Positions 6,977 to 53,420 of a stretch of 64,000 nucleotides of DNA are shown here, one piece after another. Under the pieces are notes generated by a model. The model was given only the letters and a program-made list of their open reading frames with translations. It was not told where the DNA came from and made no database searches. The DNA lies in the NCBI GenBank assembly GCA_964460615.1, contig CAYWPX010000005.1, forward strand, positions 9,524 through 73,523. Direction: 5' to 3'. How positions within the stretch are numbered: position 1 is the first letter of the stretch; the number at the start of each line of letters is the position of its first letter. The position numbers and the translations under genes were made by a program. The stretch is from an uncultured Planctomycetia bacterium. GTDB taxonomy: Bacteria; Omnitrophota; Gorgyraeia; CAYWPX01.

Positions 6977-9418
6977 ATGAACATACGAATATTAAAAGAA
7001 AAAAAATCGATTTTTAAGGTTTTAAGTTTAGTTGTTATTTTTTCATTTACACTGATAGTTAAACCGCTTTTAGCCGAAGATGCGGCCACGAACACGGCTT
7101 CTACAAGCAATGACTCTGCAACATCTGCCCCGACTATTGATAAAATAATCGAGACCACGACTTCAACGGAAGACACCGAATATTTACGCTCAGTTTTAAA
7201 AGAAACTTTTGATTCTTTATTATATTACAGGCACCCGGTTACAGGACTGTATTCCCAGAATCCTCAGAGCAACAAGGAGATGTCCAAGTGCGACCATATA
7301 GGTATGGTCTTTGGTTGTATTGCTATCGGCGGTAAAATAGGGCTTATCAGTGACGAAGAAGCTAAGCGCGAACTTGGTAAAGCACTGAGTTCTTTAGAAA
7401 AAGTCCCTACTGCTTCAGGGTTTCCCGCTGAACCGATAAAAGCTTCCGATCCTACAATAGGCTCTTCGGGTTGGGTAGCAGTGGCGGATATGGGGTGGTA
7501 TCCCTGCGGACTGATTGTTGCAGGAGAGGCGTATCCTGAATTTAAGCCACGAATTATGAAACTAATAAACGCTATGGACTGGACCAAGATGTACAACGCC
7601 GAAAAAGGATTCCTAAAAGGCATCTATGCCGTACAAAACGGGGTTTTAAAGGCTGAGGGACTTGATCTCTTGATCGCAAGCGACCAGCGTATGGCGATTT
7701 TTATTTCCATAGCCTCAGGAAAAGTCCCCGCATCAGTATGGGATAGAATGCCGCGCAATTACCTTACCAGATACGGCGAAAAATATTTAAAGCCAGGCGA
7801 AGGCCTCGGCTATGGGGAACAACCCTGGGATATGGGATATTATATAGATGAACGAGGTTCGGAAGTAGGCATGTCCAATGCTAACTTAGCCTGGGTGCAA
7901 ATGCATTACGCTTTGGATATGTGGTATCCGACTTGGGGATGGTCAAACTGTCTTACTCTTGAAAGATATATGGGTTTTGGCGATCCAGATACGTCCTGGT
8001 CATCGATAAATGCCCATGCAATAGCGCCGGCAGTAGTATTTTACCCAAACCAGGTAGTAAAAGCGCTAAAAAAACTGGAAGAACTTGGGAATAGAGAACC
8101 GGTCAGGCCTGATGGAATTACACTAAAAAAATTCGGCTTCAGAGCATCGTATGATGTGGATAAGAAAAAATCTCCTGAGGCGGTTCTTGCGGGCCTGGAC
8201 CAGCCGATGATATTTATGTCACTGGCAAATTACTTATACGACGGAATAATTTGGAAGCTTTTCAAACAAAACGAGATGGTAAGTAACGGCCTAAAATTAA
8301 TTAAGGAATATTCTAACCCCAATGCTGATTACATCAAACTTTATAAATCACGTGATACTAAAGGCCCGTCTATTGAATATAACCCGAAAGAACCCGGAAA
8401 GAAAATTATTGTAGTAGACGATTTTACAAAAAACGGCAACATAAATTCTCTTGGCGCCAATAGAGAACCGACTCTTTGCAGGCTGAACTCAACCAATGGC
8501 ATCGGAGCTCTTGAATTTATTGGAATCGGAAGCAGCCGCGGTTGGTTTATTGAAAAACTTAATGGAGTTAATCTGGTCCATCACCGGCTTCTTAAGCTAT
8601 CTATAAAAGGCAAAACTGAAGGCAAGGTCAAATTATCCCTGCGTATCGGAGGTACGGGAGGGTACAGGATGTTACCTATCACGACCGAGTGGACTGAGTA
8701 TTTGATACCCCTACGCAGTATGCTAGGCGGAACCGGGTACGACTATTCAAAAGAAAATCCTGAATTTCCATGGACAGCTATGTGGTACAACAGGTTTTCC
8801 GGTGAAGAGATCAGGATAGACCAGTTAGAAATGCCTTCTTTTGAACTTAAAGAAATATCCTTTATTGCCGCCACACCCGAAGAGATAGATATAGCCGCAG
8901 CAGCACTTGTTGCCGTCAAACCTACGGTGATAGAGCCTGACGGGACTTTTGACAGAATGGAAAAAATAGCTCTATGGTATGCGATCAGATCAGGACATAA
9001 CTCAAAGGCCGAAATATCTTCTTTGCCGGGCGTAGAAGGTAAAGGTATAGCCCTTAATTTCCAATTTCTGGAAACAGGCGCTGATAACTGGGCTTTAATC
9101 GGCAGAAAAGTCGCTTTTGAATTCCCGGAAAAAATGGATCTGGTTTTCAACATGAAGGTTACCGGAGGCCCGGCAGACCTGGAAGTAAAATTTGTTGATA
9201 ATAGCGGTGCTAACTACAGGATCACTCTGCCGAATAAAATTGTAAGTTCTGATTGGCAGATTGTAAGAGTGCCTATAGATACTATCCCTTACGGATGGGG
9301 CGGCATAGCAAAACCAAGAATTACTGATGCAGTTGAACTTCATTTTGCGGCAGTCTCAAAGTCAATGGTAAGCGGGACTGTTATCTTTGATAATTTGAAA
9401 ATTGAGAAGTCGAAGTAA
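6977..9418 (+). CDS. Large secreted protein (813 aa). Central region possibly an (alpha/alpha)6 glycoside-hydrolase-like (DUF3131/GH144-like) domain, with a C-terminal beta-sandwich CBM-like domain
   Basis: Signal peptide, Thr/Ser-rich linker, Trp/Tyr/Asp-rich central domain, C-terminal beta-rich domain. The family assignment is by recall only. Confidence 0.35.
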   Translation: MNIRILKEKKSIFKVLSLVVIFSFTLIVKPLLAEDAATNTASTSNDSATSAPTIDKIIETTTSTEDTEYLRSVLKETFDSLLYYRHPVTGLYSQNPQSNKEMSKCDHIGMVFGCIAIGGKIGLISDEEAKRELGKALSSLEKVPTASGFPAEPIKASDPTIGSSGWVAVADMGWYPCGLIVAGEAYPEFKPRIMKLINAMDWTKMYNAEKGFLKGIYAVQNGVLKAEGLDLLIASDQRMAIFISIASGKVPASVWDRMPRNYLTRYGEKYLKPGEGLGYGEQPWDMGYYIDERGSEVGMSNANLAWVQMHYALDMWYPTWGWSNCLTLERYMGFGDPDTSWSSINAHAIAPAVVFYPNQVVKALKKLEELGNREPVRPDGITLKKFGFRASYDVDKKKSPEAVLAGLDQPMIFMSLANYLYDGIIWKLFKQNEMVSNGLKLIKEYSNPNADYIKLYKSRDTKGPSIEYNPKEPGKKIIVVDDFTKNGNINSLGANREPTLCRLNSTNGIGALEFIGIGSSRGWFIEKLNGVNLVHHRLLKLSIKGKTEGKVKLSLRIGGTGGYRMLPITTEWTEYLIPLRSMLGGTGYDYSKENPEFPWTAMWYNRFSGEEIRIDQLEMPSFELKEISFIAATPEEIDIAAAALVAVKPTVIEPDGTFDRMEKIALWYAIRSGHNSKAEISSLPGVEGKGIALNFQFLETGADNWALIGRKVAFEFPEKMDLVFNMKVTGGPADLEVKFVDNSGANYRITLPNKIVSSDWQIVRVPIDTIPYGWGGIAKPRITDAVELHFAAVSKSMVSGTVIFDNLKIEKSK

Positions 9419-34884: not shown

Positions 34885-34893
34885 GGGGTATTT

Positions 34894-35286
34894 ATGGCCA
34901 AAGTGTCAAAAAGCAAGCCTAAAAAATCAAAAAAAATTTCCAAGAGACCTAAATCTAAAAAACCTTCCAAAAAAATATCAAAGACTTCTGCTAAAAAAAT
35001 TAAAAAAAACAAAATAACTTCTGAAATTACGCAAAATATGGCACTTATCGGCAGTATTGTGCATTATTTTCCACATGTAAAAGTAGGTGTTATAAATATT
35101 TCCGAGGGAACGTTAGCTAAGAACGATAATATATTTATCAAAGGGCATACTACTAAATTCAGGCAAAAAGTCAGTTCGCTTGAAATTGACCACAAGAAAG
35201 TAAATGAAATAAAAAAGAATGATGACGCAGGCATCCTGTTAAAAGCACGGGTTAGAATAGGCGATCTGGTTTACAAAATCGGTTAA
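34894..35286 (+). CDS. Lys-rich histone H1-like N-terminus fused to a small beta-barrel (EF-Tu domain-2-like) domain
   Basis: Residues 1-50 are about 50% Lys/Ser/Pro (KSKPKKSKKISKRPKSKKPSKKISKTSAKKIKK). C-terminal ~80 aa are beta-rich (VGVINISEGTLAKNDNIFIKG...GILLKARVRIGDLVYK). Confidence 0.4.
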   Translation: MAKVSKSKPKKSKKISKRPKSKKPSKKISKTSAKKIKKNKITSEITQNMALIGSIVHYFPHVKVGVINISEGTLAKNDNIFIKGHTTKFRQKVSSLEIDHKKVNEIKKNDDAGILLKARVRIGDLVYKIG

Positions 35287-37641: not shown

Positions 37642-39594
37642 ATGCAAATATTCAAATATTTTCAGGATAAGGCATATATAATCAATCAGCTGCCAATTTT
37701 TTCTGATTTAAGCGATGATGAGAAGAAAATGGTAGCTGAATTATGCCAATTTTCTGAATATAAAAAAAATGAACTTATTTATAAGCAATCAAGCCCGCCT
37801 GACAAATTCTATCTCATTATAACCGGAAGGGTCGAGGTTTTCTCTTTTTCGAAAAACGGAAAAGAGGAACCTCTTGAATATTTAAGAAGAGGACAATTTT
37901 TCGGTATTATTTCACTCTTAATAGGCGAACCGCATTCTGTAAGCGCAAAGGCAATAAATGATTCTGTAATACTGACGATAGAAAAAGATAATTTTGATCT
38001 TATCCTTAAAAAAATACCCGGACTTTCTTTCTATTTCAGCCAATACTTATCAAGAAGATTAAAAAGAAAAGACCTTCATCCGAAATCTGTTTTTGAAAGC
38101 ACTATAATTGCGGTCTTTTCGCAAGATAGGCTTACCGGCAAAACTCTCTATTCGGTGAACCTGGCTCTCAGCCTTATCAAAGAATCCAACAAAAAGGTCA
38201 TCCTTGTCGATATGAGCCCTCAGGGGAATAAGATCTTTTCTATGCTCGGAGAACCCGCTCCTAAAGCCATAAATTTAAACAACAGCTTCTTTGATGAAAA
38301 AGCCATTAAAGAAAACCGAATATATCATAAGCTGGGAATCGATATATTAGGAATAGAATACTCTGAGCTTAAAAGCGAAGAGTCTTTTAAGATAGGGGCT
38401 CTCTTAAGCCTTTTGACAAACGAGTACCACTATATCATTCTTGATCTGCCCCATATTATCGATTCTACAATCTCAAAAACATTAGCACAATCTGATCTTA
38501 TACATATCATTACTGTTGCCGAAGAAGAATACCTCAAAAAAACCAATTCTATTATTAAAGAATTCAAAGAAAACCTGAAATCAAAAAGTGAGGATATCAA
38601 GGTAATAGTAAATGAATACGAACTTAAAAAATCTTTACCGCATTCAAAAAGGGCCGAAATACTTGGGCATCAGATTTACGCGACTCTCCCTGATATAGAG
38701 CTTCATCTTAGCTTCGACAAAGAAAAAATTGTTTTAGACTACCCGGAATCATCTTACGCAAAAGCTATTCGACGCATAGCCAGAGACATAAGCCATGTTT
38801 TGATCGGATTGGCACTGGGTTGCGGCGGAGCCATGGGATTAGCTGACATAGGAATACTAAAAGTCTTTGAAAGGGAAAAGATCCCCATTGATATGATCTC
38901 CGGGACAAGCATAGGAGCTATAATTGCGGGTTTCTGGGCGGCCGGATTCAATTCAAAAGACTTGGAGAACATATTTAGAAAACAGACCGGAAAATTTTCT
39001 ATGTTTGGGTTGATCGATCTTGTTTACCCTAAAAGCGGTTTCATAAAAGGCAAAAAAATTGAAAATTTTCTTAAAAAATACCTGGGTACCAAAACCTTTT
39101 ACGATACAAAATTGCCTCTCAAGATCATCGCTTGTGATTTAGTGAACCGCCAGGAAGTTGTACTAGACAAGGGAAGCCTCACTAGCGCAATACGCGCCAG
39201 CATAGCAATCCCGGGAGTAATACAACCTCTGGAGCTGGATGGAAGAATACTTGTTGACGGAGGGATCGTAAATCCGGTGCCGACAGATGTCCTGATCCAG
39301 TCAGGAGCCAGTAAGATAATATCCGTCAATTCACTTCCTGGTCCTGTAGCTAGTAAAAATCTCAGAAAAATTCGTTTTAAAGCGGGAATTTTTGACACGA
39401 TTGTGATCAGTATCCAGGCAACTGAATTCATTATAGGGGAAAGAAGTTGCGAAGATTCCGATATAGCTCTTAGGCCAATCCTTGATGAAGTTGAATGGTT
39501 TGAATTTAGCGAGATCGATAGGCTTATAAAACTTGGCGAAGAGACCGCAGAACAATTCCTTCCTCAAATTAGGCAGTTAAGCTTGGACCAATAA
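37642..39594 (+). CDS. Three-domain protein: N-terminal cyclic-nucleotide-binding (CAP-type) domain, middle degenerate ParA/MinD-like domain, C-terminal patatin-like phospholipase (NTE/RssA-like)
   Basis: cNMP domain (GRVEVFSF...RRGQFFGIISLL...SAKAIND). Middle region has a degenerate Walker-A-like segment SQDRLTGKTLYSVNLALSL. Patatin motifs GCGGAMGLADIG (oxyanion), GTSIG (GxSxG) and DGG. Confidence 0.7.
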   Translation: MQIFKYFQDKAYIINQLPIFSDLSDDEKKMVAELCQFSEYKKNELIYKQSSPPDKFYLIITGRVEVFSFSKNGKEEPLEYLRRGQFFGIISLLIGEPHSVSAKAINDSVILTIEKDNFDLILKKIPGLSFYFSQYLSRRLKRKDLHPKSVFESTIIAVFSQDRLTGKTLYSVNLALSLIKESNKKVILVDMSPQGNKIFSMLGEPAPKAINLNNSFFDEKAIKENRIYHKLGIDILGIEYSELKSEESFKIGALLSLLTNEYHYIILDLPHIIDSTISKTLAQSDLIHIITVAEEEYLKKTNSIIKEFKENLKSKSEDIKVIVNEYELKKSLPHSKRAEILGHQIYATLPDIELHLSFDKEKIVLDYPESSYAKAIRRIARDISHVLIGLALGCGGAMGLADIGILKVFEREKIPIDMISGTSIGAIIAGFWAAGFNSKDLENIFRKQTGKFSMFGLIDLVYPKSGFIKGKKIENFLKKYLGTKTFYDTKLPLKIIACDLVNRQEVVLDKGSLTSAIRASIAIPGVIQPLELDGRILVDGGIVNPVPTDVLIQSGASKIISVNSLPGPVASKNLRKIRFKAGIFDTIVISIQATEFIIGERSCEDSDIALRPILDEVEWFEFSEIDRLIKLGEETAEQFLPQIRQLSLDQ

Positions 39595-39685: not shown

Positions 39686-40186
39686 ATGATGATATTATTT
39701 ATAGAATTATTGGTTATTCTGGTTTTAATGCTCATCTGGTTTTCGGTGAGTAGGGAGGAATCCCAAAAAATCAAAGATTCAATCTCCAAGGCTACTCTCA
39801 GGGAAATATGGGAAGGTACTGAAAGAAGGAGGTCTTTCAGATTGCCCGTATCTTTAGAAGTGCGGTATGTTATCGAGAAAAAAATACAAGCCAGTTTAAA
39901 AAGCAGGAGTAAAAATATTTCATCCGGCGGGATAATGCTTGAAGCTGAAGAGAAAATTTATCCGGGCACTCCGCTTAAATTAGAGATCATTCTGCTGGAT
40001 AATAAACCCCCTATCCAGACTGAAGCAGAGGTTATTTGGGTAGATGAAGCTAATGAATCCGATAATATCGAAAAAAGACACTTTAATATCGGAGCAAAGT
40101 TTATTTATTTAAATAATGCCAGCCTTAAACGCATAGATGAGTATGTAAAACAAAAAAGGGAAGATTCCAATGAAAGAGAGACGTAA
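39686..40186 (+). CDS. Membrane-anchored PilZ-domain protein
   Basis: TM helix, then RRSFRLPVSLEV (RxxxR) and NISSGGI (DxSxxG-like). Confidence 0.65.
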   Translation: MMILFIELLVILVLMLIWFSVSREESQKIKDSISKATLREIWEGTERRRSFRLPVSLEVRYVIEKKIQASLKSRSKNISSGGIMLEAEEKIYPGTPLKLEIILLDNKPPIQTEAEVIWVDEANESDNIEKRHFNIGAKFIYLNNASLKRIDEYVKQKREDSNERET

Positions 40187-40712
40187 ATTTAAACGTTTAG
40201 CCGTAGAAATACCCATTCAGTTGGAACCGGTTTTAAACAAAAAACAAGCTTCAACCACTGCGTATCTATTCAATTCAAAAAATATTGCTGAAGCGGGAAT
40301 GTTCCTTCATACTCCTATTAAATATAAAAAAAATCAGGCACTCGATTTTCTCATTAAACTTAGGAATGATTCTAACCCAATTCATCTGATAGGAAAAATT
40401 GTCTGGATAGCCAATAAAAAGGACCACCCATATCTCTATCCGGGAATTGGCATTAAATTCTCATTGATCAATGAGAATGATAAAAAAAGATTAAAAAAGT
40501 TCTTAAAGAGCCGCTTAGCCAGCTACAAAGATGCCAGAGAAATGAAGGATATGTACCTAAAACTAAAGAAAATGGCCGCAAGGCTTATTTCTTTGGAGGA
40601 AAAACATCCCACCGCATCTCAGTTTAAAATAATTATCGATAAGGCGATTTCGGAGATCGACAATGCCGCTCACACAATAGACAGAGAAATTATGGAGATC
40701 AAGAAGCTCTAA
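40170..40712 (+). CDS. PilZ-domain protein with C-terminal helical extension
   Basis: RRKFKRLAVEIP and NIAEAGM motifs. 17-nt overlap with the upstream gene. Confidence 0.65.
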   Translation: MKERRKFKRLAVEIPIQLEPVLNKKQASTTAYLFNSKNIAEAGMFLHTPIKYKKNQALDFLIKLRNDSNPIHLIGKIVWIANKKDHPYLYPGIGIKFSLINENDKKRLKKFLKSRLASYKDAREMKDMYLKLKKMAARLISLEEKHPTASQFKIIIDKAISEIDNAAHTIDREIMEIKKL

Positions 40713-43591: not shown

Positions 43592-44101
43592 ATGAGTTTT
43601 GAATTATTAGGGTATTATTTAGTTTTTTGCAGTATTGTAATATTCGGTCTGGCAGTCTACTTTGTAATTATTAAATTTAAAAGGTTAACTGAAGACATTA
43701 ACCTGTATGGTAATCTTGCAGGAAATAGTTTTAAAAACCCTGATAAAAAAATTTTTAAAGAACGGCGTGTTTTTGAAAGATTAGGAATAGAGTTAGATGC
43801 TATCTTAAATATCCCGGAACAGAAAAATGTCTTTGAAGCTCAAACAAAAGACATAAGTTCGAGAGGGGTAGGGGTAAAATCTAGGATTTTCTTTCCTGAA
43901 AAAACTCATGTCGAAATAAACCTTATATTATCAAAAACCGACCAATTCGTAACCAAGGGAATGGTTGTTTGGTCTAAGGAAAATTATGATGGAATAAGTA
44001 ACCTTGGGATTAAATTTGATAATTTACTAACGAATGAAATGATCAGAGTTTATAAATACTTTGATGAACTAAAAAATTCAAATTCTAAATTAATAGGTTA
44101 A
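43592..44101 (+). CDS. Membrane-anchored PilZ-domain protein
   Basis: TM helix, then RRVFERLGIELD and DISSRGVGV motifs. Confidence 0.65.
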   Translation: MSFELLGYYLVFCSIVIFGLAVYFVIIKFKRLTEDINLYGNLAGNSFKNPDKKIFKERRVFERLGIELDAILNIPEQKNVFEAQTKDISSRGVGVKSRIFFPEKTHVEINLILSKTDQFVTKGMVVWSKENYDGISNLGIKFDNLLTNEMIRVYKYFDELKNSNSKLIG

Positions 44102-44117
44102 AAAAGGATAAGGCAAA

Positions 44118-44489
44118 ATGGTCAGACTCCCTGATGAAAAAAGAAGATATATTAGATTAGAAATGCCTATAAAGATTATTTATAATGCAAAAAATGACAA
44201 TCAAATGAAAGAATCTTTCTCTAAAGACATATCTGCTGAGGGTCTTAGGTTCATAGCAAGCAGCCCGATTAACCCTGGAGCCGAAATCGAGCTTAAAATT
44301 TCATTGCCTGATGCCACTAACCCGGTTCACATACAAGGCAAGACCGTTTGGTGCAGCAAAACAAATCAAGGCGATGAAATCTATGAAGTAGGAGTTGAGT
44401 TTGTAAAAATTGAGGAAGATAATAAAAATACTTTTTTAAAGTTTCTATGTGACACAATGTATAAACAAGCAAAAAAACTATCAGCTTAA
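44118..44489 (+). CDS. PilZ-domain protein
   Basis: RRYIRLEMPIKI and DISAEGLRF motifs. Confidence 0.65.
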   Translation: MVRLPDEKRRYIRLEMPIKIIYNAKNDNQMKESFSKDISAEGLRFIASSPINPGAEIELKISLPDATNPVHIQGKTVWCSKTNQGDEIYEVGVEFVKIEEDNKNTFLKFLCDTMYKQAKKLSA

Positions 44490-47059: not shown

Positions 47060-47109
47060 AAAAAAGAGCCATATTGTGCTATGGATATATACATTATGGC
47101 TCTTTTTTT
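47060..47109 (+). terminator. Rho-independent terminator
   Basis: AAAAAAGAGCCAT...ATGGCTCTTTTTTT hairpin. It lies inside the 5' part of track ORF 47074, so I moved that gene's start to 47122. Confidence 0.55.
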
Positions 47110-47121
47110 AGGCTAAAACAA

Positions 47122-47853
47122 ATGAACTTAAATGTCAGGGAAATAGGAAGAATAAGTATTATTGATATTGAAGGCCAGATAGATATCAACTCTTCTGAAT
47201 TAGTTGAAACTGTAGGCTGGTTAGTTAAAAATGATAAGGTCAGCATTATATGTAACCTTGAAAAAGTTGAATTAGTTGATTACAGCGGGTTATCGATTTT
47301 TGCAATAATTTTCAAGAATGTATCAAACCATGGCGGGCACTTAAAATTCTGCAATGTTCCTCTCCATATTTTAGAGCTTTTTAGGGTGGTCCAATTAGAC
47401 TCGATATTTACCTTTTATAACAGCGAAGATGCTGCTATCAAAAGCTTTATAATACCCTCAGAAATTGATAAAGCCACCCTTAGAAGGCGTTTCCAAAGGG
47501 CTTATGTTCAGATAAATGTAAAATACAGGATAATAAGCAATAACTCCGAAACCAGCTATTCCCACCCGGGCAAGATACTTAATATAGGCGGCGAAGGAAT
47601 GTATATTTATACCCAGGAAATTTTTCCTATAGGAACCAGACTTGAACTCGAAGTGGATTTAGGCCCTCACAATAAACCTGCTATTATAAATGGTTTTGTT
47701 GTTTGGATCGCCGATAAAGAGATCCAACCGCACTCCTATCCAGGGATGGGGGTCCAATTTGCTAAATTAAACGACAATATACAAAAAAATATTATTGATT
47801 TCATAAACAAACATGTTACCCATAGAAGCGGACTTTACGACAATTTGTTATAA
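47122..47853 (+). CDS. STAS (anti-sigma-factor antagonist-like) domain fused to a C-terminal PilZ domain
   Basis: N-terminal SpoIIAA-like STAS pattern (ISIIDIEGQIDINSS...VELVDYSGLSIFAIIFKN...LKFCNVPLHILELFRVVQLDSIF). C-terminal RRRFQRAYVQIN and NIGGEGMYI PilZ motifs. Confidence 0.55.
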   Translation: MNLNVREIGRISIIDIEGQIDINSSELVETVGWLVKNDKVSIICNLEKVELVDYSGLSIFAIIFKNVSNHGGHLKFCNVPLHILELFRVVQLDSIFTFYNSEDAAIKSFIIPSEIDKATLRRRFQRAYVQINVKYRIISNNSETSYSHPGKILNIGGEGMYIYTQEIFPIGTRLELEVDLGPHNKPAIINGFVVWIADKEIQPHSYPGMGVQFAKLNDNIQKNIIDFINKHVTHRSGLYDNLL

Positions 47854-47985
47854 TGAATTATTTTTAATAAATCATTTGAATCTTTACATAAACATGTTAA
47901 AATAGTCCAAAGCTCATATTTATTTGGTAAAAATTGTAAAATTATGCTATACTTTAGTCAGATGTAATACACTTTAGGGAAAAGT

Positions 47986-48759
47986 ATGGATGTAGTTCTA
48001 GAAAAAACCAACAAAAAAAATCAAACTACTTTGAAAAACCAAAAAAAAGATAGGACCCACTATCATTTAGAGCAAGATTCTATAAAAGCTAAACTAGCCG
48101 ATACATATATATTTAACTCACCCAAGAAAAAAGAGACCATCCCTTTAACTTCCAAGAAAAATATTCAAAAAAAATACAACTTTTCAATGATTATTGGTGG
48201 CATTTTACTGCTTTGTGCAGTTATCCTTATCTCTAAGAATTTATTTTTTAATACCGACCCTAATAACAATCTTTCTTTATCCAATAAAAATGCTTTATTC
48301 AGTAATGGTTTGGCTAGTAAGGATAGCATAATACTCACAAATCTTAATTTCTATGGAAATTTAAGCGAAAATTCTAAACTGACTCAAGAATATATCTATT
48401 TATCAAAGTCAAGGGGAACAAAAAAGGCTGGGGTTGAAATTAAAATTAATACCCCTATAAACACTGAGAAGGGCTCTTTAATCTTATTAGCCAAAGGAGA
48501 GATAGGGGATGAAAATCTTTCAATTGTTTTGATTGACGGTGAAGAAAGTGGAGACAACACGATCAAACAGATCAGGATTTCCCCGCATTTCGGAAGTCTC
48601 ACTTCTAACTGGCAAAAGGTACTCGTTCCGTTTGAACAGATTAAAGAAAAAAATACTTTAAAAAAGATTTCGTCTATAGCATTTGAGGTCTCGGATTCAA
48701 AAAAAACTGATTCTAAGGCATCGTGCTATTTGAAGGATATTGTGCTCTTAAACGAATAG
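47986..48759 (+). CDS. Membrane-anchored protein with a C-terminal beta-sandwich (CBM-like) domain
   Basis: TM at ~60-80. C-terminal beta-rich ~130 aa with a pattern similar to the C-terminus of the 813-aa secreted protein. Confidence 0.35.
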   Translation: MDVVLEKTNKKNQTTLKNQKKDRTHYHLEQDSIKAKLADTYIFNSPKKKETIPLTSKKNIQKKYNFSMIIGGILLLCAVILISKNLFFNTDPNNNLSLSNKNALFSNGLASKDSIILTNLNFYGNLSENSKLTQEYIYLSKSRGTKKAGVEIKINTPINTEKGSLILLAKGEIGDENLSIVLIDGEESGDNTIKQIRISPHFGSLTSNWQKVLVPFEQIKEKNTLKKISSIAFEVSDSKKTDSKASCYLKDIVLLNE

Positions 48760-48780
48760 TAACATAAAAAGGAGGAAAGC

Positions 48781-49866
48781 ATGATAGTAATTTCCCTATC
48801 AAACCAAAAAGGTGGTTGTGGGAAAACGACGTCGAGCATTAATTTGGCCGCTTCTTTAGCGTATAATAATTACAAAGTCCTTTTAATTGATCTGGATCCT
48901 CAGGCTCATGCATCTATGGGTGTCGGCATCAAAACTGACAGAATTGAAAAATCTATGTATAACGTGCTAACTAGCTCTACCGATAAAAAGAAGGATCTAA
49001 ATGACGTTATACTGCATTTATGGGAAAATTTCGACCTAGCTAGCGGTCATATATTGCTAAGCACTGTGGAGCAGGAATTAAGCGACACAGAAAATGCCAT
49101 ATCCTTAGTTTACGAGGCTCTTAACAAACTAACCACTCCTTACGATTATGTAGTTATAGACTGCCCTCCAAGCTTAGGTTTTTTGACTTTCAACGCTTTA
49201 CGTGCCTCTCATGAAGTAATTATACCTGTTGAAACCAGCTCATATTCTCTTTCAGGCGTAGGTAAATTGATCAACATGGTTGAACTCATACAGCTAAAAC
49301 TCCATAGATCCCCTAAGATCAAAGGGCTTGTGACCATATTCGACAAAAGAACTAATTTTTCGAATAGAATGTTAGGTGAGATAAGAGACTATTTTAAGGA
49401 TAATATCTATTCTTCAATAATACGGGTAAATGTTGCCTTAAAAGAAGCTTCATCTAAAGGCATACCTTGTATCAAGTTTGATAAATATTCAAATGGCTCT
49501 AAAGATTATATGGCTCTGGCAGATGAAGTCATAGCGGATACCAAAAGACTCCAGCTTGAAAATTTTTATTTAAGAGCTGAATCATTATTGGAGAATATAA
49601 AGGATACTCTTCGCATAAAGAACTTTAATCTATATTCACCTAATGCGGTCGAGGTATTTATTGTGGGTGACTTTAATAATTGGACTATAAATGATGAATC
49701 CAGGCTGGAATACAATAAAGGCGGGTTCTGGGAAAAGAGAGTAGCCGTCCAGCCGGGAAAATACAGGTATAAATTCGTTGTTGATGGAAAATGGATACAT
49801 GACCCCAATAACTCAGAGACTGAGATTAATCAATACGGCGGCTTAGATTCCATCTTAACAATGTAA
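48781..49866 (+). CDS. ParA/MinD-family ATPase fused to a C-terminal CBM48/AMPK-beta glycogen-binding domain
   Basis: Deviant Walker A ISLSNQKGGCGKTTSSINLAASLA and ParA fold to ~aa 270. C-terminal VEVFIVGDFNNWTINDESRLEYNKGGFWEKRVAVQPGKYRYKFVVDGKWIHDPNN matches the AMPK1_CBM/CBM48 signature. Confidence 0.6.
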   Translation: MIVISLSNQKGGCGKTTSSINLAASLAYNNYKVLLIDLDPQAHASMGVGIKTDRIEKSMYNVLTSSTDKKKDLNDVILHLWENFDLASGHILLSTVEQELSDTENAISLVYEALNKLTTPYDYVVIDCPPSLGFLTFNALRASHEVIIPVETSSYSLSGVGKLINMVELIQLKLHRSPKIKGLVTIFDKRTNFSNRMLGEIRDYFKDNIYSSIIRVNVALKEASSKGIPCIKFDKYSNGSKDYMALADEVIADTKRLQLENFYLRAESLLENIKDTLRIKNFNLYSPNAVEVFIVGDFNNWTINDESRLEYNKGGFWEKRVAVQPGKYRYKFVVDGKWIHDPNNSETEINQYGGLDSILTM

Positions 49867-50147: not shown

Positions 50148-50582
50148 TTGGAATATAGCATCTATTGTTTTCTTATTGGGTTCCTGATCGATTTAGATCA
50201 TATTATTGATTTAGTGTTTAATTATGGATTTAATTTTAAAATCAATGAGGCTTATAAAATTCTAGCCGAGTGCAGATTGGCTAAAATATATCTTTTTTGC
50301 CATTCTTTTGAATTATTGATCATTACATTTATAATATCGCTAAACGGATCTTTATTTTGGAGTGCTATTGTTTTTGGCATAGGACAACACTTACTCTTTG
50401 ATACTATATTCAACCCAATGGGAAGGTATTCCTATTTTATTACATATAGGATCCTAAATAAATTTAATAAAGACAAGCTTATTGATAGCAAGAAAAGTTG
50501 CTATCTCAAAAATAAATTTAACAAGATGTTAGCAAGTAAATCACCTTTAAAAAGATACATTGCAATATTAATTTATGATTGA
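50148..50582 (+). CDS. Hypothetical membrane protein
   Basis: ORF with three predicted TM helices whose 3' end overlaps the porC start. Weak call. Confidence 0.25.
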   Translation: MEYSIYCFLIGFLIDLDHIIDLVFNYGFNFKINEAYKILAECRLAKIYLFCHSFELLIITFIISLNGSLFWSAIVFGIGQHLLFDTIFNPMGRYSYFITYRILNKFNKDKLIDSKKSCYLKNKFNKMLASKSPLKRYIAILIYD

Positions 50583-51123
50583 GATCAGATTTCATGGAAG
50601 AGGGGGGCAGGGAGTAGTAGTTGCCTCCAATCTATTAGGTGAAGCCGCCTTCAGAGAAGGTAAATTCATTCAATCCTTTCCTTTCTTTGGTGTCGAAAGA
50701 AGGGGTGCGCCTATCATGTCGTTTTTGAGAATTGCCGATAATAAAATTTATACCAGAACCCAGATTTACAACCCTGATTTTGTTATTGTTCTGGACCCGA
50801 CTCTTTTAAAATTCGTCGATGTTTTAAGCGGCATAAAAAGCAATGGTATCATTCTCATCAACACGCATAAAAAACCTTCAGAATTTGATCTTAAAAAAAA
50901 TATCAAAGTATGCACGATTGCAGCTAATAATATCGCGGAAGAATTTGATCTGGGATCAAAAACGTCTCCTATAATAAATACAATTATGCTGGGGGCTTTT
51001 GTTAAAGCAACAAATATAGTAAAACTGGACAGCCTTCTTGGCTCAATAAACGATCTTATTAAAATAAAAACACAAAATAATGTAGACGCGGCAGGAAAAG
51101 CATATGAAAAAGTTATCCTTTAA
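50575..51123 (+). CDS. porC: Pyruvate/2-oxoacid:ferredoxin oxidoreductase gamma subunit
   Basis: GRGGQGVV motif, ~180 aa, first of a gamma-delta-alpha-beta run. Confidence 0.8.
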
Positions 51124-51385
51124 AAAAGCAAAAAATTTACCGGAAATGGTAGTATCTTTCTATAGCTCAAAGACCAATAAGACAGGTTCATGGAGAACTC
51201 TAAAACCTGTTTTGAACAAAAAAAAGTGTATATCCTGCTTAATTTGCTGGAAATTTTGCCCGGATGCTGCTATTCTATTAAGAAAAGGCAAACCTGTTAT
51301 TGATTATAAATTCTGCAAAGGCTGTGGAATTTGTGTTGAGGAATGCCCAACCAAGGCAATATTTTGGGAAGAAGAGGAAAAATGA
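51104..51385 (+). CDS. porD: POR delta subunit (2x[4Fe-4S] ferredoxin)
   Basis: Two CxxCxxCxxxCP motifs ([24 protein letters not shown]). Confidence 0.8.
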
Positions 51386-52530
51386 AGAAGCTTTTAACTG
51401 GAAATTATGCTGCTGCTTACTCAGCCATGCTTTCAAAGGTTGAGGTTATTGCTGCATATCCTATTACGCCTCAGACTGAAATTGCTGAAAAACTATCTGA
51501 GATGGTTTCTGACGGGTTATTAAGGGCTAAATATATAAATGTTGAATCTGAGCACTCAGCAATGGCTGCCTGTATAGGCGCTTCATCTACCGGGGCAAGA
51601 GCCTTCACAGCAACATCTTCTCAAGGGTTAGCACTAATGCATGAATTGCTGCATTGGGCTTCAGGTGCAAGGCTTCCTATCGTGATGGCAAATGTTAATA
51701 GGTCCTTAGGCCCTCCCTGGAATGTTTGGTGCGATCAAACTGATTCATTGGCACAAAGGGACACCGGTTGGATGCAATTTTATTGTCAGGACAATCAGGA
51801 AGTAATGGATACTATTATTCAGGCTTATAAAATCAGCGAGGCCTTACTATTACCTTCAATGATAGTCATGGATGCTTTTATATTATCTCATACGAGCGAA
51901 GTGGTTGATATCCCTTCGGAACACGATGTTAACAGATTTCTACCGTCATTCAACCCAAAATTTAAAATGGATGTTAATCAGCCTCATACTTTCGGAAGCC
52001 TCACAGGTCCGGACCTCTATTTTGAATTTAGATATAAAATACAAAGATCGATGGAAGAAGCACTTAGTAAAATCAACTCTGTGGGCAAGGAATTCGGTAA
52101 AGTTTTCGGAAGGGAATATGGCCTTATCGAAAAATACATGTCCAACGATGCTGAAATTATTTTAGTTACATCGGGCTCTTTATCGCTAACTGCTAGAGAA
52201 CTAATAGATAAGCTTAGAAAGCACAATCTAAAGATCGGATTAGTAAGAGTAAGGGCTTTCAGGCCATTTCCTAACGACGAAATATACGAAGCCATAAAAA
52301 ATGCTAAGGTAGTCGGTGTGATAGACAGGAACATTTCATTAGGCAATGAAGGTATATTCTTTAATGAAATCAAAGCCGGGTGCTGCAATAAAACTGATAA
52401 GCCCAAGATCTTTGGATTTATTGCCGGACTTGGCGGCAGAGATATTAAAGTTTCGGATTTGGAAAAAATTGTGAAAATCCTCCAAAATAAACCTTCTCAA
52501 TATATTAATTGGATAGGACTAAAAAAGTGA
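51382..52530 (+). CDS. porA: POR alpha subunit
   Basis: Start moved to MKKLLTG (GAGGAAAA RBS, 4-nt overlap with porD). PorA-like pattern throughout. Confidence 0.8.
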
Positions 52531-53420
52531 AAAAAATAAAACCTACTATTCCAACCGAAGAGATCATGTGCCCCGGACATTTAGCTTGCCAGGGGTGCGG
52601 GGGAACCCTCGCCATGAGGCTTGCTTTGAAAGCTCTCGGGAGAGACACCATGTTAGTGATTCCGGCATGCTGCTGGTCCGTGGTGGATGGGGCTTTTCCT
52701 AATTCTTCAGTCGGAGTACCCCTTTTCCACACCGCTTTCGAAACAGCTGCTTCCGTAGCCACTGGAGTAAGAGCTGCCTTAGAAATTAAAAATAAGAAAA
52801 AAACTTCTGTTTTGGCATGGGCAGGGGACGGGGGGACTTTTGATATAGGACTTCAAGCGCTTTCCGGAGCTGCCGAGAGAAATGAAGATTTTATCTACGT
52901 TTGCTATGACAATGAAGCTTATATGAATACAGGGGTCCAGAGAAGCTCATCAACCCCTTACGGATCATGGACATCAACAACACCGGTCAAGATTTTTAAA
53001 TCATCCCATAAAAAAAATATCATAGAAATAATGAATGCTCACAAAATTCCTTACATAGCAACTGCCAGCATATTCAACCCTGAAGATCTTGTAGCTAAAC
53101 TGATTAAAGCCAAAGATATTGTTGGAACTAAATATATACATATTTTAGCTCCTTGTCCGGTTGGATGGAAATTCCCTTCTTCAAAAACAATTGGAATGGC
53201 AAAACTTGCATTTGAAACATGCATATTTCCTCTCTATGAAATTGAAAACGGTAAATATACGGTCAAGAAACCTTCTGTAAAAAAACCTGTTAAGGAATAT
53301 CTTAAAATTCAAGGCAGATTTGCCCATGTAGACGAAAAATTGATAAGATCGATACAGGAAAATACCGATAAAGACTGGGAAATCCTCTTAAATAAAGAAA
53401 TAGCTTCTAAAAATTGCTAA
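52509..53420 (+). CDS. porB: POR beta subunit (TPP-binding)
   Basis: Cys cluster CPGHLACQGCGG and TPP motif GDGGTFDIG. Confidence 0.8.
   Translation: MDRTKKVKKIKPTIPTEEIMCPGHLACQGCGGTLAMRLALKALGRDTMLVIPACCWSVVDGAFPNSSVGVPLFHTAFETAASVATGVRAALEIKNKKKTSVLAWAGDGGTFDIGLQALSGAAERNEDFIYVCYDNEAYMNTGVQRSSSTPYGSWTSTTPVKIFKSSHKKNIIEIMNAHKIPYIATASIFNPEDLVAKLIKAKDIVGTKYIHILAPCPVGWKFPSSKTIGMAKLAFETCIFPLYEIENGKYTVKKPSVKKPVKEYLKIQGRFAHVDEKLIRSIQENTDKDWEILLNKEIASKNC

Follow-up and report, generated by a model that had tools for sequence, protein, structure and literature searches.

A single gene in a 64,000-nt stretch of DNA from an uncultured bacterium of the Omnitrophota (contig CAYWPX010000005.1 of assembly GCA_964460615.1, labeled "uncultured Planctomycetia"; the whole stretch is hereafter called the window) encodes a ParA-type ATPase that ends with a CBM48-family carbohydrate-binding module (CBM). 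We conclude that this protein, ParA-CBM48 (48781..49866, plus strand), probably represents an undescribed system that organizes glycogen in the cell. The reading that we favor, at a probability of roughly 45%, is that the locus forms a two-gene module of the ParA type that tethers or distributes glycogen, with an ATPase equipped with its own glycogen-binding module. The evidence for it comes from the architecture of the protein, the conservation of its residues and the neighborhood of its gene. Known tasks of ParA/MinD ATPases are the positioning of chromosomes and plasmids, of carboxysomes, chemoreceptor arrays and flagella, and of division sites; in those systems a separate adaptor recognizes the cargo. 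Searching open-access papers and bioRxiv for ParA together with glycogen, CBM48 or AMPK1_CBM, we found no description of the present fusion.

The ParA-CBM48 protein

The gene is a single open reading frame of 361 codons plus stop that opens with ATG, 5 nt after an AGGAGG ribosome-binding site that can be read in the sequence (48770..48775, plus strand). A preliminary description of the sequence had proposed a ParA fold with a C-terminal CBM48 domain, and this architecture was borne out. In Pfam, residues 3-176 match AAA_31 (179.9 bits; CbiA also matches, with 69 bits), residues 288-354 match AMPK1_CBM (45.4 bits for a curated cutoff of 26.8; E = 9.5e-12) and residues 280-341 match CBM_48 (39.4 bits for a curated cutoff of 22.4), the last two above the cutoffs. 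The motifs quoted in that description are likewise present: the Walker A motif KGGCGKT at residues 10-16 (48808-48828), FNNW at 298-301 and YRYKF...DGKW at 328-338. Combining these matches with those to the PDB, those from Foldseek and an AlphaFold2 model, we delimited a Soj-type ATPase domain (residues 1-252; 48781..49536), a linker (residues 253-276; 49537..49608) and a glucan-binding module of the type found in the beta subunit of AMP-activated protein kinase (AMPK) (residues 277-361; 49609..49863), all on the plus strand. The model, built from the family alignment, reached a mean predicted local distance difference test score (pLDDT) of 90.5. In it, the last ParA helix continues unbroken from residue 238 to residue 276, so that the linker of the window protein is helical, and leads into a seven-stranded beta domain (residues 278-360); pLDDT is 61-79 over the linker part of the helix and 90-95 over the strands of the module.

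The ATPase half most closely resembles chromosomal Soj proteins. The best sequence matches in the PDB are 8ray (E = 3.5e-51) and the Soj proteins of Helicobacter pylori (E = 3.9e-42) and Thermus thermophilus (E = 5e-36), and the best structural match in Foldseek is Bacillus subtilis Soj (9a6n; 42% identity; template-modeling (TM) score 0.92). Soj structures score 0.86-0.92 overall, and McdA, FleN, BcsQ, MinD and ParF are more distant. None of the Foldseek matches is a solved structure covering the C-terminal 100 residues alongside ParA. Curated models for MinD, BcsQ, RepA and SopA all score far below their cutoffs (TIGR01968 for MinD, 56 bits against 212.9; TIGR03371 for cellulose_yhjQ/BcsQ, 54.6 bits against 157.85), and the amphipathic membrane-targeting helix that ends MinD is absent from the AlphaFold2 model, where the chain ends in one of the CBM's beta strands. 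Conservation was counted over 83 family members unless stated otherwise. The signature lysine K10 and the Walker lysine K15 are kept in 56/56 and 82/83 members; K10, K15, D37, D39 and D127 are each found in 82-83 of them and are invariant apart from one truncated sequence. R190, which we take from its alignment position to be the equivalent of the DNA-binding Arg189 of B. subtilis Soj, is conserved in 82/83. The residues reportedly involved in DNA binding by H. pylori Soj (K199, K227, K230 and K247; Chu et al. 2019) have only partial equivalents at the aligned positions (K/Q/N at 195, R/H at 215, A/T/S at 219 and K/R at 235). Finally, the Walker A motif reads KGGCGKT rather than KGGVGKT; its Cys13 (48817-48819) is kept in 81/83 members, across phyla, and may be a family signature or a redox-sensitive residue. 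Judged from these comparisons, the ATPase is a Soj-like member of the ParA/MinD superfamily with intact catalytic residues, and the fusion lies outside the MinD and BcsQ families.

The C-terminal module has the features of a glucan-binding domain. When its last 91 residues were compared alone with the PDB, the best matches were the CBMs of AMPK beta2 (2f15; E = 3.5e-9; spanning residues 285-358) and AMPK beta1 (1z0n; E = 7.7e-8), followed by those of pullulanase and glucan phosphatases. In the structure of AMPK beta1 with cyclodextrin, the sugar stacks on Trp100 and Trp133 and is hydrogen-bonded by Lys126 and Asn150, with contributions from Leu146 and Thr148 (PMC9788615). Mutating the equivalent tryptophan pair in the plant protein PTST abolishes starch binding (PMC4339375). 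The aligned positions in ParA-CBM48 are W301 (49681-49683) for Trp100, W338 (49792-49794) for Trp133, K331 (49771-49773) for Lys126, D356 (49846-49848) for Asn150, Y352 for Leu146 and G354 for Thr148; W301, K331, W338, Y352 and D356 are the predicted sugar contacts. Both tryptophans are conserved in 83/83 members, as are Y330, D341 and S357. Position 331 holds K in 38, Q in 23 and R in 22 members, position 356 holds D in 44 and N in 38, and position 352 is F or Y in 78/83. The contact residues known from AMPK are thus conserved family-wide, and therefore the binding site as well as the fold is under selection in every lineage. By sequence, this is a CBM of the alpha-glucan-binding type.

The segment between ATPase and module (from E249 to G296) varies between 31 and 92 aa among relatives and is often of low complexity and rich in Pro, Glu, Lys and Ala, the behavior that would be expected of a flexibly tethered binding module. 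Because the ParA fold starts at the N-terminus without any extension, we read the module as cytoplasmic, and glycogen would be the alpha-glucan expected at that location. Glycogen synthesis is among the functions reported from metagenome-assembled genomes (MAGs) of Omnitrophota (PMC8542988).

Distribution of the family and its partner genes

The fusion is widespread. The preliminary description had suggested looking for it in other genomes, and our searches returned it from at least 120 clusters of proteins and from all of the 80 species-level genomes that were retained. The clusters come from a search of 5.8 billion proteins (clustered at 90% identity); they measure 351-407 aa, share the same Pfam architecture and are 48-86% identical. 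Their named sources are all Candidatus Omnitrophica/Omnitrophota and their annotation is just "AAA family ATPase" or "chromosome partitioning protein". A scan of GTDB with one genome per species matched 598 stretches, 590 of which encode relatives, and 80 loci were retained. In all but one of these, the match to the query begins at residues 1-3 and extends to about 344-361; the exception (L053) is cut by a contig end. The carriers, mostly uncultivated, are for the most part Omnitrophota, including MAGs labeled "uncultured Planctomycetia"; the window itself (35-40% G+C) belongs to an Omnitrophota-type genome, judging by its nearest relatives. Full-length members also occur in MAGs labeled Thermodesulfobacteriota, delta proteobacterium, Syntrophaceae, Syntrophorhabdales and Desulfobacterales, and others in MAGs labeled Latescibacterota, Auribacter (Auribacterota), Eisenbacteria and Planctomycetota.

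A HMMER search with the CBM alone (1.84 billion representatives) did not yield a family size, as its matches are dominated by proteins with tandem CBM48-like repeats. These are typically about 480 aa long with four copies of a module of the form GxFNxW...YxYKFxVDGxW...FGGxNS. The closest sequence relatives of the CBM (P0137, P0142, P0147 and P0155) are secreted proteins with N-termini resembling signal peptides and 3-18 tandem CBM48-like modules.

Directly upstream of ParA-CBM48 and on the same strand lies a gene for a bitopic membrane protein of 257 aa (47986..48759), which ends 21 nt before the start of the ATPase gene. The corresponding gene of four metagenomic relatives (L002-L005) encodes a homologous product of 233-313 aa and ends 4-20 nt before the start of ParA, despite differing downstream genes. 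An iterated hidden Markov model (HMM) detected a homologue immediately before the fusion, and on its strand, in 58/84 loci; when loci with less than 700 nt of sequence on that side are set aside, the count is 55/75. The 47986 gene is a genuine conserved partner of ParA-CBM48. In this respect the preliminary description, which had named as possible partners both this gene, for a transmembrane and beta-sandwich protein, and the STAS-PilZ gene before it, was half right: the STAS-PilZ gene (47074/47122-47853) was found only in the window and in four relatives (L002, L003, L006 and L008; 54-61% identity), and we attribute its presence to local synteny within a PilZ-rich region.

The partners fall into two size classes, of about 192 aa and of 235-315 aa. 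Near the N-terminus they share a motif, EIYxHLAxxYLGK[RK] in the short partners and KEKLAxTYI in the long ones, which in the window reads L37-A38-x-x-Y41 (48094..48108) and whose L, A and Y are conserved in 86%, 92% and 92% of 59 partners, respectively. Behind it come a Lys-rich stretch, a single hydrophobic helix and, at the C-terminus, a beta domain in which a Trp is invariant. In the window protein the single transmembrane helix spans residues ~65-87 (48178..48246; AlphaFold2 helix 60-87, hydropathy peak at residue 65). The residues K and R flanking this helix average 4.9 on its N side and 2.5 on its C side, with N exceeding C in 47/58 partners, and the charge bias therefore favors an orientation with the N-terminus inside. 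The extracytoplasmic domain (48328..48756) is modeled by AlphaFold2 as a beta jelly roll with a pLDDT of about 90. Its Foldseek matches are CBM30, CBM4, CBM11 and CBM16 (E = 2e-6 to 1e-5; TM scores 0.5-0.64), and a Pfam match to CBM30 (24.4 bits) falls below the cutoff of 27. As predicted from this topology, the short N-terminal peptide would be the sole part of the partner able to reach the cytoplasmic ATPase, and the motif, its sole conserved cytoplasmic segment, is a candidate ParA-contacting peptide. Two promoter-like sites with an extended -10 TG (47876..47953, plus strand; consensus scan) fall within the 132 nt that separate the partner gene from the gene before it, and are weak candidates for the operon promoter; their number is not above the shuffled expectation. 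Elsewhere in the window, an 813-aa protein with a "putative glucoamylase" domain (6977-9418, plus strand; PF10091, 40 bits) gave a weak match to the partner HMM (E = 3.3e-4), presumably through a similar jelly roll.

Carriers without the membrane partner present another conserved gene, this time downstream of the fusion. The next product starts with the peptide K-[KR]-L-G-[RK]-G-L-[ED]-[DE]-x-[SA]-x-[LI]-F-[LI]-S. In five loci the peptide heads a protein of about 310 aa encoded directly after ParA-CBM48, with a degenerate CbiA/ParA P-loop (33 bits), that we term pseudo-ParA (L039:7128-8045, L062:4507-5454, L081:7080-8036, L084:3339-4277 and L086:4336-5253); in three others (L055, L072 and L075) the same peptide is found on a protein of about 185 aa. 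An LGKGL peptide is also carried, behind a Lys-rich leader, by the DUF4912 proteins of four loci (L039:9725-11608 and, from the metagenome scan described below, L086:6915-8786, L087:4587-6437 and L088:7191-8771); further DUF4912 genes were located in L089-L113. The protein of L039, encoded four genes downstream of the fusion, has 627 aa, with a Lys-rich N-terminus and a DUF4912 domain (129.8 bits).

These peptides resemble the N-termini of ParB proteins in the PDB (GLGRGLEALL in 1vz0 and GLGRGLSALL in 6t1f), and because of this resemblance we regard the proteins that bear them as candidate activators. An N-terminal ParB peptide of the LGRGL type reportedly stimulates the ATPase of Soj (Leonard et al. 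2005). A phmmer search of the PDB with a 27-aa LGRGL peptide returned spurious zinc-finger matches only, and a search for "LGRGL" with ParB found nothing in open-access papers and bioRxiv. The resemblance suggests that the LG[RK]GL-bearing proteins may activate the ATPase in carriers lacking the membrane partner. A pseudo-ParA bearing a peptide of the type that activates ParA looks unusual in itself. In the Thermodesulfobacteriota-type loci (L018-L028), the gene following the fusion encodes 145-190 aa starting with MPFIRxRRIWWEPVP and matches no family above threshold; it may represent a third, independent partner type.

Glycogen genes, the favored model and its alternatives

The neighbors of the loci were clustered and representatives of the clusters annotated. 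A gene of glycoside hydrolase family 57 (GH57; 230.8 bits) lies upstream of the fusion in 17 loci, all from the Omnitrophota subgroup with short partners. The product has no N-terminal leader before its catalytic domain, and its closest solved relatives are GH57 proteins of the 8zyi type. In 16 of these 17 loci the GH57 gene directly precedes the partner gene, a PIN-PhoH gene taking the position of the partner in L017; in 8 loci the two genes are on the same strand and 13-61 nt apart. Other enzymes of glycogen metabolism were found downstream of the fusion, namely GlgC five genes away in L014 and a branching enzyme with GH57 and BE_C domains four genes away in L062. Two loci (L086 and L087) contain a same-strand cluster of ParA-CBM48, a ParA-like pseudo-ATPase that bears an LGKGL peptide, a NucS-like gene, PgeF, DUF4912 and GH57. 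The GH57 proteins of this cluster align over their full length to models of GH57 1,4-alpha-glucan branching proteins (NF041133; 331.5 bits). A metagenome scan with the DUF4912 part of the L039 protein gave 30 independent loci, in 12 of which GH57 directly follows DUF4912, and one LGKGL-bearing protein, that with DUF4912, thereby belongs to a glycogen gene pair. From this context DUF4912 may be a glycogen-associated protein of a glycogen operon; a search of open-access papers and bioRxiv found nothing relevant on it. The co-occurrence with glycogen genes for which the preliminary description proposed a search thus holds for relatives, where GH57, a GH57 branching enzyme, GlgC and DUF4912 are found near the fusion. 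It does not extend to the window, in whose 64 kb no glg gene, GH57 or DUF4912 was found, and the glycogen link of this genome is therefore drawn by homology.

These observations can be assembled into the following model. ATP-bound dimers of ParA-CBM48 would sit on the nucleoid through R190 and neighboring basic residues, each dimer presenting two CBM48 modules on flexible linkers and thereby holding glycogen particles bivalently. Tethering to the nucleoid would spread the glycogen and lead to its even distribution and inheritance. Hydrolysis of ATP would be triggered by the partner peptide, leaving monomers that would release DNA and, through lost avidity, glycogen. In this genome the activator would be the cytoplasmic N-terminus of the membrane protein encoded at 47986; in other lineages it would be the LG[RK]GLEDxSxLFLS N-terminus on the degenerate ParA-like protein and on the DUF4912 protein. 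Such cycling would drive redistribution of the ParA type, as for plasmids and carboxysomes. On this model ParA-CBM48 would partition a storage polysaccharide and, as a machine dedicated to that task, would be the first of its kind: a nucleoid ParA that grips glycogen by a CBM48 in cis, is switched by ATP-driven dimerization between bivalent (tight) and monovalent (loose) binding and is reset by lineage-specific activator peptides, so that glycogen would be an actively inherited, organelle-like body in several phyla. We advance this wider proposal tentatively. If the model is true, storage polysaccharide would be a new class of ParA cargo, and the family would provide a simple, testable account of how glycogen granules are shared out when bacteria divide. 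Independently of it, this is a widespread family (at least 590 species-level genomes matched) with a cargo-recognition module fused to the motor, the fusion could serve as a genetically encoded glycogen tether or probe, and the DUF4912 proteins with their ParB-like peptide and the degenerate ParA-like protein with the same peptide constitute two further leads.

Several observations weigh against the model. Given the lack of glycogen genes in the window, the glycogen link is transferred from relatives that are 40-47% identical, and the adjacency to GH57, confined to one Omnitrophota subgroup, could be inherited synteny. The Omnitrophota partner is an integral membrane protein with its bulk facing outward, whereas an activator bound to the cargo should be located on the granule. 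The motif at the partner's N-terminus does not resemble LGRGL, and its outward CBM-like jelly roll has no role in the scheme. Moreover, closely similar CBM48 modules exist as the secreted tandem repeats described above, and CBM48-like folds are found in non-glycan roles, a plug protein of the type IX secretion system (T9SS) being among the matches of the module (NF052315, E = 5.6e-8; 6h3j, E = 0.002).

Glycogen might instead be a signal rather than the cargo. In that case CBM48 would report on the store and modulate a ParA that positions the chromosome, the division site or a membrane partner or envelope complex, coupling the cell cycle or the envelope to carbon reserves. We consider this unlikely. 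It accords with the role of the AMPK beta CBMs, the closest sequence relatives among solved structures, through which binding of glycogen or cyclodextrin regulates the kinase allosterically (PMC9788615), with a conserved partner that is a membrane protein and no obvious granule protein, and with the abundance nearby of proteins with PilZ domains, which relate to cyclic di-GMP (c-di-GMP). However, the long, variable and often disordered linker argues against a defined allosteric interface between CBM and ATPase, and the cluster of L086 and L087, which itself holds glycogen enzymes, fits a cargo better.

The outward jelly roll that the partitioning model leaves aside would find a place if the ATPase organized an envelope complex in the manner of BcsQ. 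ParA would then arrange the bitopic partner, and perhaps an AlgE-like barrel, and CBM48 would dock cytoplasmic alpha-glucan or GH57 for import, export or turnover. An outer-membrane barrel of the Alginate_exp type (81.6 bits) indeed lies 2-3 genes upstream of the fusion in about 26 loci, the Pfam model CBP_BcsQ matches the ATPase with 34 bits, and BcsQ structures are among the Foldseek matches. We nevertheless regard this arrangement as decidedly unlikely: Soj resembles the ATPase far more than BcsQ or MinD does (180 against 34 bits), neither the barrel nor the membrane partner was found in carriers outside the Omnitrophota, and the loci share no conserved glycosyltransferase or synthase.

A further possibility, which we judge improbable, is that the C-terminal module is a CBM48-like E-set domain serving protein contact or another ligand, with no role in glycogen. 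E-set and CBM48-like domains do occur in non-glycan contexts such as the T9SS plug, and a window devoid of glycogen genes agrees with this. Yet the contact residues are kept, with both tryptophans in 83/83 members, D or N at the position of Asn150 and F or Y at that of Leu146, and GH57, GlgC and DUF4912-GH57 genes repeatedly occur beside the fusion.

It is very unlikely that ParA-CBM48 is an ordinary chromosomal Soj/ParA with an accessory domain, its ParB being encoded elsewhere. The identity of 42% and the TM score of 0.92 to B. subtilis Soj, the conservation of R190 and the fact that four loci have mnmG (gidA), identified by eye through its N-terminal sequence, 2-3 genes downstream all speak for it. 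However, phmmer searches with the N-terminal 67 aa of T. thermophilus Spo0J found no ParB-like gene in the window, in 85 loci or in the 30 DUF4912 loci, and the Pfam annotation of neighbors contains no ParBc domain. What is conserved instead is a set of lineage-specific neighbors other than ParB, together with the distinctive KGGCGKT in 81/83 members. The gene next to mnmG (cluster c57) was considered as a ParB and rejected; by eye it looks to be of the radical-SAM type, and the ParB search found nothing in these loci. The fusion therefore lies outside ParABS as defined by an adjacent ParB.

Finally, the joining of two genes by an assembly error or frameshift, the artefact that the preliminary description had cautioned about, can be dismissed, because the same single-frame fusion recurs in at least 120 clusters and in all 80 retained genomes, which are independent species-level assemblies, the gene is one uninterrupted open reading frame in all of 83 further loci, the model is confident across the junction, and nothing speaks in favor of such an error.

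Other neighbors and comparison with known systems

Several neighboring genes were considered as parts of the system and rejected. The downstream open reading frame 50148-50582 (cluster c20) recurs in 6 loci only and has no Pfam match; it looks like a membrane protein kept by synteny. Genes resembling DUF4870 and EF-Tu domain 2, respectively first and second after the fusion in about 32 short-partner loci, are not obligate parts: in the window, the DUF4870-like gene was not found and the EF-Tu-domain-2-like homologue is located at 34885-35283, 14 kb from the fusion. The recurrent order in short-partner loci (L029-L083), from position -3 to +2, is an AlgE-like barrel, GH57 (in some loci), the partner, ParA-CBM48, a membrane protein of ~107 aa and a Lys-rich EF-Tu-domain-2-like protein. 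Members of the ~107-aa membrane protein in L004 and L005 carry a weak precomputed match to PF09685 (MamF_MmsF).

The window also encodes five PilZ-domain proteins within about 8 kb (39686-40712, 43592-44489 and 47074-47853), including one that is joined to a STAS domain. The syntenic regions of relatives again contain PilZ genes, which suggests heavy c-di-GMP signaling in this lineage. Downstream of the fusion lies an operon for a four-subunit pyruvate/2-oxoacid:ferredoxin oxidoreductase (POR; 50575-53420, plus strand), whose subunits by synteny with L002 and L003 are POR gamma, Fer4 delta, POR_N alpha and thiamine pyrophosphate (TPP) beta, and which is syntenic in close relatives only. A second unusual ParA-family fusion of 650 aa (37642-39594, plus strand) is built of three domains, one binding cyclic nucleotides (75 bits), one of the ParA-like AAA_31/CbiA kind (46.5 bits) and, at the C-terminus, a patatin phospholipase (102.7 bits).

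Among described systems, the chromosomal Soj/ParA proteins of type Ib (B. subtilis, T. thermophilus and H. pylori) share with ParA-CBM48 the fold, the signature Lys and the Walker A, A' and B motifs, at 34-42% identity and TM scores of about 0.9. In contrast to them, ParA-CBM48 has about 110 extra C-terminal residues (linker and CBM48) that are unseen in solved ParA structures, the variant Walker A motif noted above and, as conserved neighbor, a membrane protein where ParB would stand. In the orphan-ParA cargo systems (McdA/McdB of carboxysomes, PpfA-TlpT, ParC-ParP and PomXYZ), a dedicated ATPase handles a large non-DNA cargo together with a small, fast-evolving partner, and an N-terminal basic peptide of the partner is expected to activate the ATPase. 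ParA-CBM48 resembles McdAB-like systems in the small co-inherited partner gene that adjoins it (55/75 loci), whereas in other lineages the conserved gene lies downstream. What sets it apart is the cargo-binding module, carried in cis on the ATPase and not only on an adaptor, and its presumed cargo, a polysaccharide; the identity to McdA structures is only 18-20%.

BcsQ is another ATPase of the ParA/MinD fold tied to polysaccharide biology, but its similarity is much weaker than that of Soj, it has no CBM, and neither the window nor the loci yielded bcs genes. The AMPK beta CBM is the best sequence match of the module, with equivalents of Trp100, Lys126, Trp133 and Asn150 present; here the module is borne by a ParA ATPase and not by a kinase scaffold, and Leu146 is replaced by Tyr or Phe, Thr148 by Gly and, in the window protein, Asn150 by Asp. 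Plant PTST (PROTEIN TARGETING TO STARCH; a coiled coil with a CBM48) follows the logic proposed for ParA-CBM48: behind a helical segment, a C-terminal CBM48 recruits another activity to a granule of alpha-glucan, with binding dependent on the same two tryptophans (PMC4339375). PTST nevertheless has no ATPase and is eukaryotic and plastidial, and outside the CBM nothing indicates a shared ancestry. By analogy, the nearest functional counterparts of ParA-CBM48 would thus be the orphan-ParA cargo systems such as McdAB and, for the logic of its CBM, plant PTST.

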